64,000 bases of DNA from Escherichia phage p000v, in the sequence record NC_055781.1, one strand, 5' to 3'. Of this stretch, positions 37,572-45,576 are shown in pieces; within the stretch, counting starts at the first letter, position 1, and the number at the start of each line of letters is the position of its first letter. Position numbers and translations under genes: made by a program. The notes under the pieces are model-generated. The model saw only the letters and a program-made list of their open reading frames with translations. It ran no database searches and was not told the origin of the DNA.

Positions 37572-38146
37572 TATGCAATCTCCATCTCACGAATCAAATC
37601 AGTAATAAACGAGTTTATATCTTCTTTTGCAACAATTTTTATTTTACGAAGTTTTTCATTATCTAATACTGCCGCTTCATAAGTATCTACTGCAGCTAAA
37701 GGTCCTTTATATTGCGGATACTTACGAGCTTCGTCACCTTTGTCATACCACACTAAAGGCTCATCCGGATATGAAACTAAATTGTAAAATTTCTCACGGT
37801 TCTCGTTAATATGGTAAAGAATTTGGTCTCCGCCAGCATTTGCATATTTCTGAATAGACGCTTGATACGCTGCTTCCTGAGATGTAATCCAACCATAATA
37901 TGGGTCATAGTTATCATTGCACATCAAAAGGACCCAGTATAATTGAGGGTTGCCATAAATTATGTTTGCTAGTTCTTCAGGACGCGGAGAGCCTTTAATA
38001 TAATAAGAACGTAATCTATAATTAGCAGCAACACGCTTAAAGTACTCTTTATAGTTACGAAATATGTCTGTCATAGGAATAGTAGGTGCATTCTTATCAA
38101 CTGTTTTAGCACTATATCCTATTGGGTCGAAGAATGTAAATAACAA
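37571..38146 (-). CDS. 53: Baseplate wedge protein gp53
   Basis: 191 aa; (M)LFTFFDPIGYSAK...; first codon at 38144-38146 reads TTG on the minus strand, with SD AAGGAG 6 nt upstream. Confidence 0.88.
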   Translation of the reverse strand: MLFTFFDPIGYSAKTVDKNAPTIPMTDIFRNYKEYFKRVAANYRLRSYYIKGSPRPEELANIIYGNPQLYWVLLMCNDNYDPYYGWITSQEAAYQASIQKYANAGGDQILYHINENREKFYNLVSYPDEPLVWYDKGDEARKYPQYKGPLAAVDTYEAAVLDNEKLRKIKIVAKEDINSFITDLIREMEIA

Positions 38147-38173
38147 AATAGTCTCCTTCCAATATGAAATTGG

Positions 38174-38181
38174 TATAAATA
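38174..38181 (+). promoter_or_regulatory. Late promoter (TATAAATA) for gene 4
   Basis: Plus-strand TATAAATA about 27 nt upstream of gp4 ATG (38208). Confidence 0.6.
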
Positions 38182-38188
38182 ATAATAC

Positions 38189-38196
38189 TATTTATA
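38189..38196 (-). promoter_or_regulatory. Late promoter (TATAAATA) for gene 53 and the baseplate operon
   Basis: Minus-strand TATAAATA about 43 nt upstream of the gp53 start. Confidence 0.6.
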
Positions 38197-38207
38197 AGGA
38201 GGACAAC

Positions 38208-38657
38208 ATGGCCTACTCTGGTAAATGGGTCCCAAAAAATTTAAAAAAATACCGTGGAGACCATACCAAAATAACGTATCGTTCAAACTGGGAAAAATTC
38301 TTTTTCGAATGGTTAGATAAAAATCCAGAAATTATTGCATGGGGCAGCGAAACGGCAGTAATTCCATATTTCTGTAACGCAGAAGGTAAAAAACGTCGAT
38401 ACTTTATGGATATATGGATGAAAGATGCATCAGGTCAAGAGTTCTTTGTAGAAATAAAACCAAAGAAAGAAACTCAACCACCTATTAAGCCTGCAAATCT
38501 TACGACCGCAGCAAAGAAACGTTATATGAATGAAATCTACGTGTGGTCTGTGAACTGCGACAAATGGAAAGCTGCGTCAGCATTAGCGGCTAAAAGAAAT
38601 ATTAAATTCAGAATTCTCACAGAAGACGGTTTACGTCGTTTAGGATATAAGGGATGA
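38208..38657 (+). CDS. 4: Head completion protein gp4
   Basis: Start at M49 of the track ORF (SD AAGGAGG, ATG 38208) gives 149 aa (T4 gp4 about 150 aa); position next to genes 53 and 2. Confidence 0.75.
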   Translation: MAYSGKWVPKNLKKYRGDHTKITYRSNWEKFFFEWLDKNPEIIAWGSETAVIPYFCNAEGKKRRYFMDIWMKDASGQEFFVEIKPKKETQPPIKPANLTTAAKKRYMNEIYVWSVNCDKWKAASALAAKRNIKFRILTEDGLRRLGYKG

Positions 38658-38658
38658 T

Positions 38659-39309
38659 ATGTATACTGTATATAAAATAACTAACATCGTAAATAATAAA
38701 ATTTATATAGGTGTTCATAAAACTAATAACCCGGATGATTCTTATAAAGGAACAGGTAAAATTATCTTAAAAGCCCATGCTAAATACGGATTAGATAATT
38801 TTGTAAAAGAAGTATTATATGTGTATGATACCGGTGACGAATTACTAAATGAAGAAATGGCTTTCCAAAAGGAAGCAGAATTAGTTGATCAATCTTTTGT
38901 GGATAGAGAAGATACATATAATATAGACCTAGGAGGAAAGGGAGGACGAGGCCGTTCTATTGATGTGCGAAAAAGAATAGGCGATTCATCCAGAGGTAGA
39001 AAATTAGGTCCTATTTCCGAAGAATCTAAAAAGAAAATGAGTTTAGCTAAGAAGGGTAAGAAATTATCCGAAGAGCATAAAGCTAAAATAGGTAAAGCAG
39101 GCCGAGGCAGGATAATGCCTAAAGAGATTAGAGACAAAATAAAAAATACTCTTACGGGACGAAATAGAACTCCTGAAGAAAAGGAAAACATGAGATTAGG
39201 ATACTTAAATACTCCTAATAAGATATGCCAATACTGCGGTATAGAATGTAAACCTGCGCCTTATAAACGTTGGCATGGTGATAATTGTAAAATGAGGAAA
39301 GTTGAATGA
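38659..39309 (+). mobile_element. Free-standing GIY-YIG homing endonuclease gene (Seg-like) inserted between genes 4 and 2
   Basis: 216 aa; N-terminal GIY-YIG module (VYKITN...KIYIGVHKT), several NUMOD3-like repeats (KKMSLAKKGKKLSEEHKAKIG..., KEIRDKIKNTLTGRNRTPEEKENM), C-terminal Cys pair; ATGA-type overlaps at both ends. Confidence 0.8.
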
Positions 39310-40127
39310 GCATATTCCAAATTATATCTGAAGGCGTACAAGCCCCTAAGATTGCTCAGTCTATTAACGAAAGAAAATGGATTAAGGTGGGATTAGAGTA
39401 CAAGAAAGCTAAAGAGAAAGGAATCACTGCAAAAGCATTTGCAGAATCAAAAGGAATAAAATACTCGACGTTTAAGTCTGCAATGTCTAAATATGCATCG
39501 GCTATTAAAACTGAACAGAAAATTGAAACACTTGAATCTAAACCTAAAAATAAACTCAATAAGCAAGAACGTCAACTTCTGATGATAAACTCGTTTCGCA
39601 GTTCAATACGAGAAAAGATTAGAAATGAAGGCGCAGCAGTAAACAACAAATCATCTAAGTGGTTTGTTGAAACAATTAAGAAAAGTGTAAAAGGTCATAA
39701 AGTAGTCAAGCCTACGCCAGGCAAAATTTATACTTACGTGTATGATGCTAAACATAAAGATACTCTGCCATACTGGGACAGATATCCTTTGATTATTTAT
39801 TTAGGATTAGGTAAACATAATTTGTTGTATGGGTTAAACTTGCACTATATCCCACCTAAAGCACGACAACAGTTTCTTGAAGAATTGCTGAAGCAATATG
39901 CTAGCACAACTACTATTACTAATAACACAAAGTTGAAGATAGACTGGAGCAAGGTGAAAGGATTTCAAGGTGCTGACAAAATGATTAAAGCATACCTGCC
40001 AGGCCACATTAGAGGAACAATAACAGAAATCGCTCCTAAAGACTGGGCTAACATAATCATGTTACCTACTCAGCAGTTTATGTCAAAAGGAAAACGTTTC
40101 TCTGCGAATACTGTTTGGAAATCTTAA
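39306..40127 (+). CDS. 2: DNA end protector protein gp2
   Basis: 273 aa (T4 gp2 274 aa); position between genes 4 and 3. Confidence 0.88.
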
Positions 40128-40229
40128 TTCTATTCTCTTCCGTTCTTCTGATATTCTGTTGAACCAGATTAATGGAAGAGACCTAAAACCATTATACTGC
40201 ATTTTTATTAAAGCGTTTTTGAGGTGCTT

Positions 40230-40814
40230 ATGACTCGTCCAACGAGACAGATTTTTAACCAAACAAATATAACAAACTTTGTTGTGGATATCCCGGATAG
40301 TACACGAACTTCAGGTTTTGTGCTCAATGCCCAAACGGCACCATTGCCAGGTGTGAGAATTCCTGTTGTTGAAACTGTGACAGGCACAATGGGGTTAGGA
40401 CGTGCAATGCGTGCAGGCACCACATTTGAATACGACCCTTTTGTTGTACGATTTATAGTTGATGAAGACATGACGTCCTGGATGAACATGTATAAATGGA
40501 TGCTCAGCACTAATAACTATATAACCGGACATAATACAGCCCACTCCGATGGTCCTGAGTTTGTTACTTTGCACATTTTAAATAACAATAAGACAGAAGT
40601 AGTTTTGACGGCAAATTTCTATAAACCATGGATTTCTGATTTGAGTGAAATTGAATTTAGTTACACTGAAGACTCTGACCCTGCCGTTACGTGCGTAGCA
40701 ACTATTCACTATGCGTATATGACGATAGAAAAGGATGGTGAAGTCATTGTATCTCAACAACCGCGTCAAGCGGTCGAATCTAAATCCATTTCTAGACACC
40801 CTTCCTTGCGTTAA
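40230..40814 (+). CDS. 3: Tail tube terminator / tail completion protein gp3
   Basis: ATG at M3 of the track ORF; about 194 aa; position between genes 2 and 1. Confidence 0.8.
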   Translation: MTRPTRQIFNQTNITNFVVDIPDSTRTSGFVLNAQTAPLPGVRIPVVETVTGTMGLGRAMRAGTTFEYDPFVVRFIVDEDMTSWMNMYKWMLSTNNYITGHNTAHSDGPEFVTLHILNNNKTEVVLTANFYKPWISDLSEIEFSYTEDSDPAVTCVATIHYAYMTIEKDGEVIVSQQPRQAVESKSISRHPSLR

Positions 40815-40867
40815 TCGCTTCTAGCTCCGTATGTTATAATCACTTATAAATTATATGAGGAAAACCT

Positions 40868-41602
40868 ATGGAGCTAATCTTTTTAAGTGGCATCAAACGT
40901 AGTGGTAAAGACACTACTGCTGATTACATCAATTCAAACTTTAAATCCGTAAAATACCAATTAGCATATCCAATTAAAGACGCTCTAGCAATAGCCTGGG
41001 GACGTAGGCATGCTGAAAATCCTGATGTATTCACAGAGTTGAAATACGAATACTTTGAAGGCATTGGATACGACCGTGAAACACCATTAAATCTCAATAA
41101 GTTGGATGTTATTGAATTATTGGAAGAAGCGCTAATTTATTTGCAAAGTCAATATTTACCAATTAATAATGTTAAAGTATTATCATCGTTAGAAGGTGGA
41201 TATTCATATCTAGATATTAAACCATATGAAGCCCTGCGTGAAGCTATAAATAATATCAACGACACATGGTCAATCCGCCGTCTTATGCAAGCCCTCGGTA
41301 CGGATGTTGTCGTTAATTTATTTGACCGTATGTATTGGGTTAAGCTTTTTGCATTAAACTATATGGATTATATTGGAAGTGATTTCGATTACTATGTCGT
41401 AACCGATACACGCCAAGTCCATGAAATGGAAACCGCTAGAGCGATGGGTGCCACAGTTATTCATGTGGTTCGCTCTGGTACGGAATCCACCGATAAACAT
41501 ATTACAGAAGCTGGGTTGCCTATTGAAGAAGGTGATTTAGTTATTACAAACGACGGCTCTTTAGAAGAGCTTTATTCTAAAATTGAAACAATCTTAAGGT
41601 AA
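40868..41602 (+). CDS. 1: Deoxynucleoside monophosphate kinase gp1
   Basis: 244 aa; P-loop SGIKRSGKDT; T4 gp1-like. Confidence 0.9.
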   Translation: MELIFLSGIKRSGKDTTADYINSNFKSVKYQLAYPIKDALAIAWGRRHAENPDVFTELKYEYFEGIGYDRETPLNLNKLDVIELLEEALIYLQSQYLPINNVKVLSSLEGGYSYLDIKPYEALREAINNINDTWSIRRLMQALGTDVVVNLFDRMYWVKLFALNYMDYIGSDFDYYVVTDTRQVHEMETARAMGATVIHVVRSGTESTDKHITEAGLPIEEGDLVITNDGSLEELYSKIETILR

Positions 41603-41606
41603 TAAA

Positions 41607-42292
<686 letters not shown>

Positions 42293-42304
42293 TTTCACAA
42301 AACA

Positions 42305-42368
42305 GTTTACATAAGGATGATGGTGTGTTACTATCATCCTATCAAATAAACAACCTCAAGGAAATAAA
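42305..42368 (+). promoter_or_regulatory. Early promoter + stem-loop cassette (PeSL-like) upstream of ipI-like gene
   Basis: GTTTAC (42305-42310), TGTTACTAT -10 inside the inverted repeat AGGATGATGG...CTATCATCCT, CTATCAA leader, SD AAGGAA. Confidence 0.6.
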
Positions 42369-42680
42369 ATGAAAACGTATCAAGAGTTTATCGCAGAAGC
42401 TACTAAAGCCGATAAAAATTTTATTATTAACACCACCGGTCCGTTAGATGATGAATACGCTAATGCTATTATTAAGTCAATTTCTAATCAAGGCGTTGAA
42501 GTAACAAATTTCGAATATAAGAAAAATGATACTTATATGGTAATTAGTATCAAAAAAGGTTCAAAGGCTAAAATTAAATCTGCATTTGGTGTTATGCGAG
42601 TCGACCAAATCGATAACCACGATTTTTCACAAACAGGGGTCAAACGCCAGAATACTATTTCATCTAAAGGCATAAAATAG
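42369..42680 (+). CDS. Internal protein (IPI locus) with capsid targeting sequence
   Basis: 103 aa; N-terminus MKTYQEFIAE|A matches the T4 internal-protein CTS with IxE protease site; located next to 57B as T4 ipI. Confidence 0.7.
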   Translation: MKTYQEFIAEATKADKNFIINTTGPLDDEYANAIIKSISNQGVEVTNFEYKKNDTYMVISIKKGSKAKIKSAFGVMRVDQIDNHDFSQTGVKRQNTISSKGIK

Positions 42681-42746
42681 TTTACATGCTGATAGGACTA
42701 TGTTATAGTAGTCCTATCAAAACAAATGAGTAAATGGAGAAATAAA
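42680..42746 (+). promoter_or_regulatory. Early promoter + stem-loop cassette (PeSL-like)
   Basis: GTTTAC (42680-42685), TGTTATAGT -10 inside the inverted repeat ATAGGACTA...TAGTCCTAT, leader CTATCAAAACAA, SD GGAG. Confidence 0.6.
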
Positions 42747-42932
42747 ATGAAACGCGCTGAACTGATTCGTAATGTTGCTGTAGTAATTGCTTCAATGGCT
42801 TTTAGTTTTTCGATGTTTGTAGGATTCATTTGTGGACTACTGACAACAACTGAAAATTCTATCTCATTGGTAGTAGCATTTCTAATCGGCTTAATCGCTA
42901 TCGTTATGGATAAAATTGCAAAAGGTGAGTAA
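42747..42932 (+). CDS. Small membrane protein (two predicted TM helices)
   Basis: Start at M8 of the track ORF (SD GGAGA 7 nt upstream); 61 aa; hydrophobic segments VAVVIASMAFSFSMFVGFICGLL and ISLVVAFLIGLIAIVM. Confidence 0.55.
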   Translation: MKRAELIRNVAVVIASMAFSFSMFVGFICGLLTTTENSISLVVAFLIGLIAIVMDKIAKGE

Positions 42933-43295
42933 ATGAAATATCATGTATATGCGGATTTTGAAGCAAATCCTTCTAAAGACCCTGATTGTCGTTTGATACG
43001 CAGACCATTTGATTCGGCAGCTCAAGCCTGGGCCTGGATTAAATCTAAATCGCCTGGTTATATGTTCTTTGAAGTAGTCGATGACAATGGTACACTGCAT
43101 CCGGCCCCTACAGAAACTATTAATTTCCTTCTGTTTGCTGGTTATGAATATTATCCTTATGGCGGTATTGACGACTTATACGCTAAAGGAAAAACTGTTG
43201 AGGCTCTTCGCGAAATTTATAAAAACGCTGAAGAAAATTTTGACTGGTATCATATTGTTGATGCTCACACCTTTGAAGTGGTGGAACATTCATGA
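42933..43295 (+). CDS. Hypothetical protein
   Basis: 120 aa ORF; SD GGTGAG; tight packing with neighbours. Confidence 0.55.
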   Translation: MKYHVYADFEANPSKDPDCRLIRRPFDSAAQAWAWIKSKSPGYMFFEVVDDNGTLHPAPTETINFLLFAGYEYYPYGGIDDLYAKGKTVEALREIYKNAEENFDWYHIVDAHTFEVVEHS

Positions 43296-43582
43296 TTCTT
43301 TATGCTAAAGTATCATCCGTCAAGAACGGTTATGAAAGCGACCAACGTGCAGCTAAAGCACTAGTTGATGACTACGGTATTCTGACCCTCTTTGAAGTTG
43401 AAAAGGTTTATATTGACCGTTCATCTTCACAGGTTAAATTACTCTGGGAAGACCGTAAATTTAATAGTGTGAACTTTGATTTCTTTATTGAAACAGAAAA
43501 AGGCCCTCTTGAATATGATATTTTCAAGAATCCTTTAAATCTTGAATGTATTGAGTATACTTACATTAATATGGTACGGTGA
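43292..43582 (+). CDS. Hypothetical protein
   Basis: 96 aa ORF with ATGA overlap. Confidence 0.55.
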   Translation: MILYAKVSSVKNGYESDQRAAKALVDDYGILTLFEVEKVYIDRSSSQVKLLWEDRKFNSVNFDFFIETEKGPLEYDIFKNPLNLECIEYTYINMVR

Positions 43583-43586
43583 GTAA

Positions 43587-44102
43587 ATGAATATTCGTTT
43601 AGGCAGTACAATTACTAAGGGCTACGTAATTGATGTCACTACCTATGAAAATGATGGTGACAACTATAAAACCAAAACATTGTTTGAAGTGGAAGAACAT
43701 GAGCTCCAACAGTTTAAATATCTCTTGAAGAAATTTAAGAGCCGTCATTCTAGCACCAAAGCCGAACGCTATTGCGGTAATACACCATTCAGTGATTGCT
43801 CGCTTATTATCTACGAATATCTGGTTGAAGGACTGTTCTCAGACCAACTCCAACCGGAATTTATTAAAAAGGTCTTTGGTATCGAAGTAGACCTTGGTGA
43901 TAAATCTGAAGAAGACGAAGCCCGCGTATTCGACCTGTTCTTTGTGAAAGGCGATGAGATATCTCAAGGACTTATTGATATTCTTGGCTATGCTTCTGAA
44001 TACTATGATTACGATTTCTTGCGTGTAGTTGAACGTGTCGAATTTGCTTATATTGAAAAAGAAATTGTTTTGCCAACAGTTAAAATGGTTGATTTGCTTT
44101 AA
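43587..44102 (+). CDS. Hypothetical protein
   Basis: 171 aa ORF; SD GGTGAG identical in context to the 42933 start. Confidence 0.55.
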   Translation: MNIRLGSTITKGYVIDVTTYENDGDNYKTKTLFEVEEHELQQFKYLLKKFKSRHSSTKAERYCGNTPFSDCSLIIYEYLVEGLFSDQLQPEFIKKVFGIEVDLGDKSEEDEARVFDLFFVKGDEISQGLIDILGYASEYYDYDFLRVVERVEFAYIEKEIVLPTVKMVDLL

Positions 44103-44181
44103 GAATTATGTGTTATTATTAATTCATACCCTCTATTACCAAAGGTGCTCTAAAGTGCCTTTCATAATAGAAAGTTATTAA

Positions 44182-44253
44182 GGCCCTGTAGCTCAATGGG
44201 AGAGCTGTCAGCTCATAACTGATAGGTAGCTGGATCGAAACCAGCCAGGGCCA
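44182..44253 (+). tRNA. tRNA with anticodon CAU (Met, or Ile if C34 is modified)
   Basis: Cloverleaf folded by hand: acceptor GGCCCTG/CAGGGCC (7 bp), D-stem GCTC/GAGC, anticodon stem GTCAG/CTGAT with loop CTCATAA (anticodon CAT at 44214-44216), 5-nt variable loop, T-stem GCTGG/CCAGC with loop ATCGAAA, discriminator A. No encoded CCA. Confidence 0.8.
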
Positions 44254-44294
44254 TATTTTGGGAACATAAATACTCTTAGAAATAGGAGATATTT

Positions 44295-44963
44295 ATGTTC
44301 CATTACACTTATAAAATAACAAATAAAATTAATAATAAAATCTATATAGGCGCTCATTCTACCGAAAATTTAGATGATGGATATATGGGTTCTGGTAAAT
44401 TATTAAAAAGAGCCCAAGACAAGTATGGTATAGAAAATTTTAATAAAGAAATTTTAGAATTCTTTGACACTAAAGAGCAGATGTTTGAAGCCGAGAAAAA
44501 TATCGTAAACGAAGAATTTTTGAATCGTTCTGACGTATATAATTTAAAACTTGGTGGCGAAGGTGGTTGGGACCATTTAAATACTTACGAATTTAATTAT
44601 AAAAAGAAAGAAGCCTCTATTAAAGGAGCCAAAGCTTTTAAAGAGAGATTTGATTCTGATGAAGTGCTTCAAGAAAAATATCGTAAAATGGGTTCAGAGA
44701 AATTAAAGCATCTGTGGACTTTACCTGAATACAGAGAAAAATTCTCTAGCACTAAGTCGTTTTTAAATAAAAATCATACTTCCGAAACTATTGCTAAAAT
44801 GAAAGATACCCACGCCAGGAACAAACACCAACAAGGCGAGAAAAATTCCCAGTTTGGTACTATGTGGATTCATTCATTAGAAGAAAAGAAATCTAAGAAA
44901 ATTAAGAAAACCGATCCTATTCCGGAAGGTTGGATTAAAGGCTATAAACTAAAATTTAAGTGA
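44295..44963 (+). mobile_element. GIY-YIG homing endonuclease gene, SegB-like (adjacent to tRNA)
   Basis: 222 aa (T4 SegB 221 aa); N-terminal GIY-YIG module YTYKITNKINNKIYIGAHST; basic C-terminal DNA-binding region; located beside the tRNA gene as T4 segB. Confidence 0.75.
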
Positions 44964-44970
44964 GGAAAAT

Positions 44971-45316
44971 ATGAAAGGTAATATTTATCTGGTAGTTCAT
45001 GATTTAACGTTTTATTTTAACGAACAGGATACAGTTATTTCGCGACCGGTTGATTAATTCATTATATCAACACGCTGATTACGTTTATTTCCAAAATGAA
45101 TTTGGCCATTGGAAGTTCCTTAAAAATCGTTCCGGGTTAACTAGTTTTGAATACTTTGACCGTAAAGACCTTTTAAACGAAATTCCATTGCAACATCGGT
45201 TCCAGAAACGCGAATCATTATATTATTGCCGTCATATACCAAACGCAGAATGTGCCAATGAAGCGATTAATCTATGGCGTAGACGTAGAGAACAAATTGA
45301 TGATATGCCAAAATAA
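44971..45316 (+). pseudogene. Possible frameshift-split gene (28-codon ATG ORF followed by an 88-codon ORF lacking an ATG start)
   Basis: ATG 44971 with SD GAGGAAAAT opens a 28-codon ORF ending at 45057; the 45050-45316 track ORF is in another frame and has only a TTG start with no internal Met until the last residues. Confidence 0.3.
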
Positions 45317-45484
45317 GAAGCCGGGTCGCTACCGGCAAGACGTCGGACTGATGTTCCCTGGGTAAGGACTGGTCTTAATAAATCTTTACGATTTGTTAAT
45401 ATCCCCTTACATCACAGCAGAAACGGCGCGCAGAATTATCGATTCGAGGAAATATCTTTGCCGTAAGCCGAGTAGCGTTTTTGA

Positions 45485-45576
45485 CGGAACGTTCGGATAT
45501 GGTCGAGATATGGCCTTTTAAAAATATTGAGTAGCGTCAACTGCTTAATAACCGGGTTCGAATCCCGGCGTTTCGT
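45485..45576 (+). ncRNA. tRNA-like element (canonical T-arm and acceptor pairing; D/anticodon arms do not fold convincingly)
   Basis: CCGGG-TTCGAAT-CCCGG T-arm followed by CGTTTCG, which can pair with CGGAACG about 85 nt upstream; could be a degenerate tRNA or a small stable RNA as in the T4 tRNA region. Confidence 0.25.

Follow-up and report, generated by a model that had tools for sequence, protein, structure and literature searches.

The DNA analyzed here is a 64,000-nucleotide stretch of Escherichia phage p000v (NC_055781.1), referred to below as the window, from a Mosigvirus (RB69-like) genome. Minus-strand genes 5 and 53 are followed on the plus strand by gene 4, an endonuclease gene, and genes 2, 3 and 1, which apart from the endonuclease gene is the T4/RB69 arrangement. 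The endonuclease reading frame, taken from a six-frame ORF list, comprises 216 codons with an ATG start at positions 38659-39309 of the plus strand and lies, as the initial annotation had described, between gene 4 (38208-38657, plus strand), which encodes a head completion protein of 149 amino acids (PF08722, E = 2.6e-20; homolog of RB69 gp4), and gene 2 (39306-40127, plus strand), which encodes a DNA end protector of 273 amino acids. The ORF list runs gene 4 back to 38064; comparison with the RB69 homolog of 150 codons places the real start at 38208 after an AGGAGG Shine-Dalgarno (SD) sequence. The insert had been described as fitted into the junction by start/stop overlaps on both sides. This is correct on the gene 2 side, where the gene 2 ATG (39306-39308) overlaps the endonuclease TGA (39307-39309) as ATGA, but not on the gene 4 side, where the gene 4 TGA (38655-38657) is followed by a single T at 38658 before the endonuclease ATG at 38659 and the two genes abut. 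There is no intron context around the ORF, which is free-standing between the conserved genes 4 and 2. T4 has no endonuclease at this position, in agreement with the initial annotation: its genes 4 and 2 abut directly with no gene between them and Table 1 of a review of T4 mobile elements has no seg or mob gene at the junction (PMC2988022). The second, SegB-like gene that had been placed beside a tRNA at 44295-44963 is real, and the tRNA is tRNA-Met.

The signals that may govern expression of the gene were examined next to those of its neighbors. The motif TATAAATA, the T4-type late promoter consensus, is located at 38174-38181 on the plus strand and precedes gene 4 by 27 nt. No other plus-strand copy is present between 2275 and 41245, and the window as a whole contains 19 copies compared to 8.45 expected. 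From established knowledge of T4 late promoters, this element is presumed to drive transcription of gene 4 and of the endonuclease gene and gene 2 behind it. A minus-strand copy of the motif faces gene 53. A separate promoter for the endonuclease gene was considered and rejected: no plus-strand TATAAATA is present from 38181 to 41245, and sigma-70-like matches did not exceed shuffle expectation. No terminator-like signal above shuffle expectation was detected. An RNA hairpin over the ribosome-binding site is known at mobE or I-TevI. A hairpin that hides the ribosome-binding site was rejected here, since the fold was no better than that of shuffled sequences (z = -1.4), and Rfam revealed nothing but the tRNA over 38000-45500. 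An SD-like AAGGGA sequence is present at 38649-38654 on the plus strand, 4 nt before the endonuclease ATG, and its counterpart in the insert-less phage RB69 (AAGGGG) is the SD of gene 2. The SD-like sequence GAGGAAAG at 39294-39301 on the plus strand lies in the 3' end of the endonuclease gene, 4 nt before the gene 2 ATG, and by its placement appears to replace the gene 2 SD that was taken over by the insert. Late co-transcription of the three genes is plausible given these signals, as is coupled translation given their spacing and SD placement.

The ORF product matched PHROG 314, 'homing endonuclease', with E = 1.7e-50, and 318 homologs were recovered from a large protein collection at E <= 1e-3, many of them with PF07460, PF19835 or PF01541. 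These matches and a dN/dS ratio of 0.06, described below, indicate that the reading frame is a genuine gene and not a chance ORF. Identical proteins in HX01 (YP_010246876.1, 100%), GADS24 and ChristianSchoenbein already are annotated 'homing endonuclease'. In Pfam searches with the query alone, NUMOD3 (PF07460) passed marginally with 20.7 bits compared to a cut-off of 20.4, PF19835 (SegE_GIY-YIG) scored 21.1 bits under its cut-off of 25, and PF01541 was not reported. When 36 aligned homologs were searched (E <= 1e-3), PF19835 was matched by 22, PF01541 by 13 and NUMOD3 by 26 (best E = 4e-31). The sub-threshold GIY-YIG score of the query reflects divergence of its sub-clade and not another fold. 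Matches to the annotated genes segB, segC, segD and segH were obtained with tblastn, and the catalytic domain is 48% identical to that of T4 SegB over amino acids 1-96.

A direct search of PDB sequences with the protein gave no match; I-TevI was reached only by a profile of the 36 homologs, for which the I-TevI catalytic domain was the sole real PDB match, and by the predicted fold. The AlphaFold (AF2) model had a mean pLDDT of 88.7 and shows a beta-beta-alpha-beta-alpha N-terminal domain with strands at residues 2-9 and 15-21, a helix at 34-43, a strand at 48-56 and a helix at 61-75. The three top Foldseek matches in the PDB all were to the I-TevI catalytic domain (1MK0, probability 1.00; 1LN0 chains, 0.97-0.98), with TM values of 0.53-0.57 on the target and one helix fewer in the query model than in I-TevI. 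The predicted catalytic GIY-YIG domain (amino acids 1-96; 38659-38946) is followed by an array of NUMOD3-like helical repeats (amino acids 100-184; 38956-39210) that is presumed to bind DNA. Three repeats, at amino acids 100, 120 and 137, are clear by regular expression and two are looser, and the model places helices under them at 101-111, 121-131, 138-148, 155-165 and 172-184. The C-terminus carries the zinc-knuckle-like CCHC motif CQYCGIECKPAPYKRWHGDNC of the form CxxC-x12-H-x3-C (amino acids 190-210; 39226-39288), which matched no Pfam family. This motif is kept in all members of the clade at the junction and in a small number of relatives at other positions; T4 SegB-E lack it. Thus, the aligned Tyr, Glu and Asn residues, the I-TevI fold match and NUMOD3 support assignment to the GIY-YIG/NUMOD3 family as originally proposed. 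By homology, modeled fold and population pattern, the product is recognizable as a Seg-type free-standing GIY-YIG endonuclease.

Residues Y5, Y16, E72 and N88 align with I-TevI Y6, Y17, E75 and N90, respectively. Among 122 homologs, the Y5 ('VYK') and Y16 ('YIG') columns are invariant in 121-122, N88 is kept in all 122 and E72 in 119. All 17 residues that are invariant in the clade are present in the query, including N9, N12, G18, D27, Y29, G31, G44 and F48, and K14, K42 and K/R50 are near-invariant basic positions. Of the catalytic Arg and Glu residues to which the initial annotation had drawn attention, the Glu is present, but no Arg could be aligned with I-TevI R27. Both HMMER and MAFFT placed the I-TevI segment 'FEKRWKRHF', which includes R27, in an insertion relative to the Seg clade, and the model has a loop at amino acids 22-33, containing the invariant D27, Y29 and G31, where I-TevI has helix alpha1. 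An alignable hallmark Arg also is absent from T4 SegB, SegC, SegD and SegE. As SegB, SegC and SegE are listed as active in Table 1 of the T4 review (PMC2988022), the lack of an alignable Arg does not by itself argue for inactivity or decay, and in the alignments it extends to the Seg clade in general. Inactivation by replacement of the catalytic Arg with Lys at K38 also was considered and rejected: the column is variable across the 122 homologs (K in 38, R in 28, N in 17, Q in 10 and A in 9), is occupied by N in T4 SegC, Q in T4 SegE, and Arg in SegB and the allele of phage ECO111, and aligns with I-TevI R47 and not with R27.

To assess the distribution of the insert, positions 38150-40150 were used as a megablast query on a set of 50,697 phage records. 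Matches were obtained in 678 records, 150 of which showed 95-99% identity and all of these were RB69-like (Mosigvirus). The whole query was covered by four records only, namely HX01 (twice), GADS24 and ChristianSchoenbein, and ECO111 5-P has a longer, different Seg insert at the same site. Among the matches listed, the other close records aligned as two pieces spanning ~1355 bp and therefore have no insert. The junction is empty in about 145 of ~150 close Mosigvirus records with flank identities of 95-97%, which corresponds to an occupancy of ~3% in the genus. In the insert-less form, the gene 4 TAA is followed by TT and the gene 2 ATG, and the RB69 junction reads GGATACAAGGGGTAA-TT-ATGAGC. 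Insert-less alleles are the rule, and universal presence of the gene in relatives, raised previously as an argument against a mobile insertion, is refuted by the large majority of close Mosigvirus records.

The protein sequence is the same in the five available copies of the gene, one from the window and four from records of three phages, and the ORF is intact in all five genomes. The four nucleotide polymorphisms that distinguish the copies all are synonymous third-position changes. Comparison with a homolog of 73% identity on Logan contig L018 gave a dN/dS ratio of 0.06, with dS saturated. This substitution pattern denotes purifying selection on the protein. In a sliding comparison over 14 kb, the insert and the preceding 81 nt showed 0-1 mismatches per 200 nt among carriers, whereas the flanks differed by 2-8% in shifting mosaic patterns. 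The 81 nt (38576-38656, plus strand) form the tail of gene 4 and differ from RB69 at 28 positions. In these codons 123-149, 19 of 27 codons are changed with four amino acid replacements, and the changes, which include codon-family switches, amount to 35% divergence that is mostly synonymous. Codons 1-122 of gene 4, by comparison, gave dN = 0 and dS = 0.06 with RB69. As gene 4 lengths differ and an ungapped comparison anchored on the stop codon is misleading, tail identities were anchored on the DKWKAA motif; the values were 67% to T4, 74% to contig L018 and 68% to RB69, compared to 98% to RB69 over the preceding 198 nt.

Across the 50,697 records, no record apart from the four that carry the insert matched the 81-nt tail at >= 99% identity, and every other Mosigvirus record showed an ~78% match over part of its length. 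No donor of the tail was found in this set. Downstream of the insert, in gene 2, the sequences of the other carriers match RB69 exactly to beyond 39700. The tail divergence, as judged from these identities, is at the level seen between genera. This divergence combined with the unchanged gene 2 side indicates that the element was imported from another lineage along with a piece of the gene 4 of that lineage, and that the two move as a unit.

The data in the preceding paragraphs bear on whether the protein could be a decayed or domesticated endonuclease that no longer cuts DNA and that persists by hitch-hiking, is kept because translation of gene 2 has come to depend on its 3' end, or acts as a DNA-binding regulator. 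Such a protein would fit with the lack of an alignable catalytic Arg and the Lys at the position where T4 SegB has Arg, as well as with the Pfam GIY-YIG score under threshold, the low Mosigvirus occupancy and the location of the gene 2 SD inside the ORF. However, the Arg column is variable in the clade, with N in SegC and Q in SegE that are listed as active (PMC2988022), and all clade-invariant residues are kept. Moreover, the intact ORF in five genomes with synonymous changes only, the low dN/dS ratio, and the persistence of a near-identical island in diverged backbones argue against decay, which is considered unlikely.

The gene 4/gene 2 junction also is occupied in other genera. Using tblastn, 59 records matched the query over >= 80% of its length with E <= 1e-25, and inspection of annotated regions revealed homologs that lie between genes 4 and 2, oriented and packed as in the window. 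These comprise genes in P479 (Gaprivervirus, 66% identity to the query; also in PSD2001 and Yersinia P8 by annotation), Acj61 (Acj61p156; Lasallevirus, 48-52%), KARL-1 (gp127; Lazarusvirus, 50%), STP4-a (STP4a_135; Gelderlandvirus, 45%) and RB16 (RB16p187; Pseudotevenvirus, 41%; also in GAP161 by annotation). In addition, two uncultured T4-like contigs have homologs of 73% and 50% identity between gp4-like and gp2-like genes. The homologs at the junction span 39-73% identity and at least five named genera besides Mosigvirus. The RB16 homolog is labeled 'Seg-like' in GenBank record HM134276, and no paper was found in the literature that describes or tests a seg gene at the gene 4/gene 2 junction. 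More distant relatives are located elsewhere: the homolog in Vibrio phi-ST2 (37%) is situated between regA and gene 62, that in P0022 (37%) adjoins RNA ligase, and none of 80 IMG/VR loci with homologs of <= 43% full-length identity had gp4 or gp2 within 2.5 kb. In a neighbor-joining distance tree without support values, the junction members except RB16 formed one group, and RB16 was placed beside the SegD branch.

Occupancy of the junction is patchy in each of these groups. Three of about 34 close records are occupied in Gaprivervirus, four of 68 in Pseudotevenvirus-type phages, and STP4-a alone among about 15 close records in Gelderlandvirus. In Lazarusvirus, ten records have the KARL-1 type, four have a different Seg gene (Kimel type), and the rest are empty among the matches listed. 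Other endonuclease families also were noted at or near this position, with an unrelated endonuclease at the gene 4/gene 2 junction in fPSFA and a MobB-like gene just downstream of the junction in Gaprivervirus.

Seven pairs of carrier and non-carrier phages were compared by counting mismatches per 50 nt outward from the junction. On the gene 4 side, the first three bins contained 18, 10 and 1 mismatches for the window and RB69; 21, 14 and 7 for P479 and VR7, for which values were high throughout; 13, 11 and 10 for RB16 and Lw1; 18, 7 and 6 for Kimel and Abraxas; 11, 2 and 5 for ECO111 and RB69; 5, 1 and 1 for KARL-1 and Abraxas; and 4, 0 and 0 for STP4-a and S16. The first bin on the gene 2 side had two mismatches for P479 and VR7 and one in each of the other pairs. 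Mismatches thus cluster near the 3' end of gene 4, over its final 50-150 nt, with no such cluster in gene 2, and the affected side is consistent in all seven pairs although the size of the tract varies. Relatives of the STP4-a and KARL-1 types have only 4-5 linked changes, which tells against the mechanism proposed below. At the other extreme, the whole of gene 4 is foreign in P479 compared to VR7 with 72% identity, whereas gene 2 is about 95% identical (95-99% across insert-less relatives).

As the divergence in the seven pairs is confined to the gene 4 side, the cleavage target probably is the 3' end of gene 4. The region of the 81-nt tail is a candidate for the target site in insert-less phages and, in its diverged form, for a determinant of immunity in carriers. 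Alternatively, the diverged tail could be a passive remnant of the donor from the first acquisition instead of an immunity determinant. I-TevI remains bound to one cleavage product and is associated with one-sided co-conversion (PMC2988022), and by analogy the one-sided divergence also fits with co-conversion of the I-TevI type.

A mechanism can be proposed from these patterns. The late promoter of gene 4 would drive late transcription of the endonuclease gene along with genes 4 and 2. Translation of the endonuclease would start from the SD that insert-less phages use for gene 2, and the insert would supply gene 2 with a new SD. In a cell that an insert-less relative has also infected, the protein would bind near the empty junction through its NUMOD3 and zinc-knuckle part, and the GIY-YIG domain would cut within the last ~80-150 bp of gene 4. 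Phage recombination would repair the break from the carrier genome and thereby copy the endonuclease gene together with the gene 4 tail beside it. The carrier itself would be immune as the insert splits the site and the gene 4 tail is ~35% diverged, mostly at synonymous positions. We assign a probability of roughly 0.7 to this reading as a whole, that is, a Seg-type homing endonuclease at the gene 4/gene 2 junction that acts by the full mechanism including homing and belongs to a lineage specialized in this junction of T4-like phages. The ~3% occupancy in Mosigvirus runs counter to efficient homing, for which so low a value is unexpected unless the element arrived recently or imposes a cost. 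The lack of an alignable hallmark Arg and the Pfam GIY-YIG score under threshold for the query also weigh against this reading.

A different emphasis would be that the nuclease is kept chiefly as a weapon against the genomes or essential late genes of co-infecting relatives, with its own spread as a by-product. Seg enzymes do cause localized marker exclusion (PMC2330249, PMC2988022), the presumed target gene 4 is essential, and two other endonuclease families occupy or neighbor the junction. Nevertheless, the mechanism would be the same as in homing and the two cannot be separated by sequence; as the principal reason for retention of the gene, this reading is judged improbable. It is more improbable still that the gene is ancestral at the junction in T4-like phages and was lost many times by deletion, as occupation of the same junction in several genera and subfamilies might imply, since ~145 Mosigvirus records all show the same clean empty site, the carriers resemble one another much more closely in the endonuclease gene than in their backbones, the 81-nt one-sided tract of inter-genus divergence denotes import from another lineage, the whole of gene 4 came along in Gaprivervirus, and two unrelated alleles are found at the same site in Mosigvirus and likewise in Lazarusvirus.

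The preferred reading, that of a homing endonuclease at the gene 4/gene 2 junction, can be extended tentatively. On a conjecture that we regard as rather less probable than its converse, the junction genes might represent an unnamed Seg lineage, marked by NUMOD3 and a terminal CxxC...WHGDNC knuckle, that tracks the gene 4/gene 2 junction through the Straboviridae (Tevenvirinae, Twarogvirinae and Pseudotevenvirus), always drags a resistant gene 4 tail with it, and competes with other endonuclease alleles. In the same conjecture, Seg enzymes might dispense with the hallmark Arg helix in catalysis, its role being taken by Lys42 or a different residue.

Among T4-like phages, marker exclusion and mosaicism stem in large part from free-standing homing endonucleases, and the gene described here flanks two essential late genes. 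It is an ordinary, uncharacterized member of a well-known type of element; its significance is local and not general, and knowledge of the element type is unchanged. What the analysis adds to the existing annotation is the insertion site shared across genera, the divergence confined to the gene 4 side, and the finding that the Arg is unalignable across the Seg clade. The carriers HX01, GADS24 and ChristianSchoenbein (BASEL collection) are described isolates and RB69 is a natural insert-less partner, such that the system is usable to study the choice by Seg enzymes of a target in the neighboring gene and immunity conferred by a short synonymous tract. The junction has been colonized repeatedly, with two Seg alleles each in Mosigvirus and Lazarusvirus, which suggests competition among selfish elements. 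The unalignable Arg in Seg enzymes, including those listed as active, merits a structural look.

The closest relatives of the gene in organization are the genes of HX01, RB16 (RB16p187), Acj61 (Acj61p156), STP4-a (STP4a_135) and KARL-1 (gp127), which share the junction, the orientation, the packing and the order of domains including the CCHC motif. Those outside Mosigvirus differ in sequence, with 41-52% identity, and the linked gene 4 tract ranges from four changes in STP4-a to the whole gene in P479. Among characterized enzymes of T4, homing with exclusion of flanking markers is documented for SegB, SegE, SegF and SegG (PMC2988022, PMC2330249). The window gene resembles segB in the type of catalytic domain, its free-standing location in a late-transcribed region, and its sporadic occurrence among relatives. 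SegB homing replaces neighboring DNA of the recipient and the gene lies in the tRNA cluster (PMC2330249). SegB differs in its C-terminal half, in which neither a NUMOD3 array nor the CCHC motif was detected, in its target, which is a tRNA T-psi-C sequence and not gene 4, and in having Arg in the column where the query has Lys; furthermore, its activity is known biochemically whereas that of the window protein is predicted from sequence. T4 SegG and SegF, which cause marker exclusion of genes 32 and 56 (PMC2988022), provide a parallel as free-standing GIY-YIG genes beside an essential gene. They cut inside the neighboring gene away from the insertion point and co-convert the flank, as we infer for the gene 4 tail. 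SegG and SegF occupy other genomic sites and have other sequences, and their cleavage sites have been mapped, whereas here the site is suggested by the asymmetric divergence of the flanks. The model finds its best structural match in the I-TevI enzyme of the T4 td intron, which has Tyr, Tyr, Glu and Asn in common with the query and likewise is modular, its catalytic domain being joined to an extended DNA-binding region with a zinc finger. Unlike the free-standing window gene, I-TevI is intron-encoded; its helix alpha1 with R27 is without counterpart in the query, and it binds DNA through a helix-turn-helix domain where the junction protein has NUMOD3 repeats and a terminal CCHC motif.

The junction between gene 4 and gene 2 hosts more than one type of mobile nuclease. 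Within Mosigvirus and within Lazarusvirus, a second Seg allele that is just 34-39% identical is located at the same site. The Mosigvirus example, an STP4-a-like gene encoding 240 aa, lies at positions 2011-2733 of the Escherichia phage ECO111 5-P comparison locus, and the Lazarusvirus allele is present in Kimel (Acinetobacter phage; 747-1490 of its locus), Octan and Meroveus. The two Mosigvirus alleles, of the window and ECO111 types, are exactly alike in their last ~32 nt, a shared terminus that suggests one endonuclease gene was swapped for another through recombination inside the 3′ end. The same junction is occupied in Shigella phage fPSFA by the gene for an unrelated Cys-rich protein of 242 aa (1053-1781 of its locus; PHROG 681 'endonuclease', E = 2.5e-29). 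A MobB-like endonuclease gene is positioned between genes 2 and 3 in Gaprivervirus phages, for example VR7 (2332-2988) and P479 (3469-4128; both in locus coordinates). The gene 4/gene 2 neighborhood is a mobile-nuclease hot spot. The head completion protein gp4 (38208-38657) matches the TnsA-like endonuclease N-terminal domain in Pfam (PF08722, E = 2.6e-20), and is annotated as a 'head completion nuclease' in some records.

Codons 20-75 of gene 2 (39365-39530) form a patch that is mutually identical in RB69, ECO111 and the three remaining carriers of the endonuclease gene but differs from them at 15 nt in the window. Seven codons are altered nonsynonymously and five synonymously. The patch showed ~93% identity in all matches listed, with four further records in the 95-99% band, and no exact match was detected among the phage records searched. 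An unsampled donor may have supplied this sequence as a co-conversion tract; alternatively, the patch may reflect diversifying change in gp2. Further downstream, two segments are strongly mosaic. At 41546-41845, the window differs from RB69 and ChristianSchoenbein at 37-43 positions per 200 nt, and GADS24 and HX01 are near-identical to it. The second segment (42364-42680) includes a 103-aa ORF at the internal-head-protein position, and from ~42364 the window is ~50% different from all four relatives.

The SegB-like GIY-YIG gene (44295-44963; Pfam GIY-YIG, 29 bits) follows tRNA-Met(CAU) (44182-44253). In RB69, ChristianSchoenbein and GADS24, tRNA-Met is succeeded by tRNA-Arg(UCU), which according to ARAGORN and Rfam is absent from window positions 44182-45060; the HX01 record has no tRNAs annotated at this position. 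The window's arrangement recurs in only two phage records, vB_VIPECOMC06 and LF82-4. During homing of T4 SegB, recipient tRNA genes, including tRNA-Arg, are replaced (PMC2330249).

The endonuclease at the gene 4/gene 2 junction carries the C-terminal motif CxxCG-x8-10-KRWHGDNCK (residues 190-210; 39226-39288), for which there is no Pfam model and which is predicted by structure modeling to adopt a short β-hairpin plus helix. The motif is present in all members of the junction clade, the homologs sited between genes 4 and 2, as well as in phi-ST2, P0018, P0022 and P0030, with two copies in some. T4 SegB-E lack this C-terminal element.
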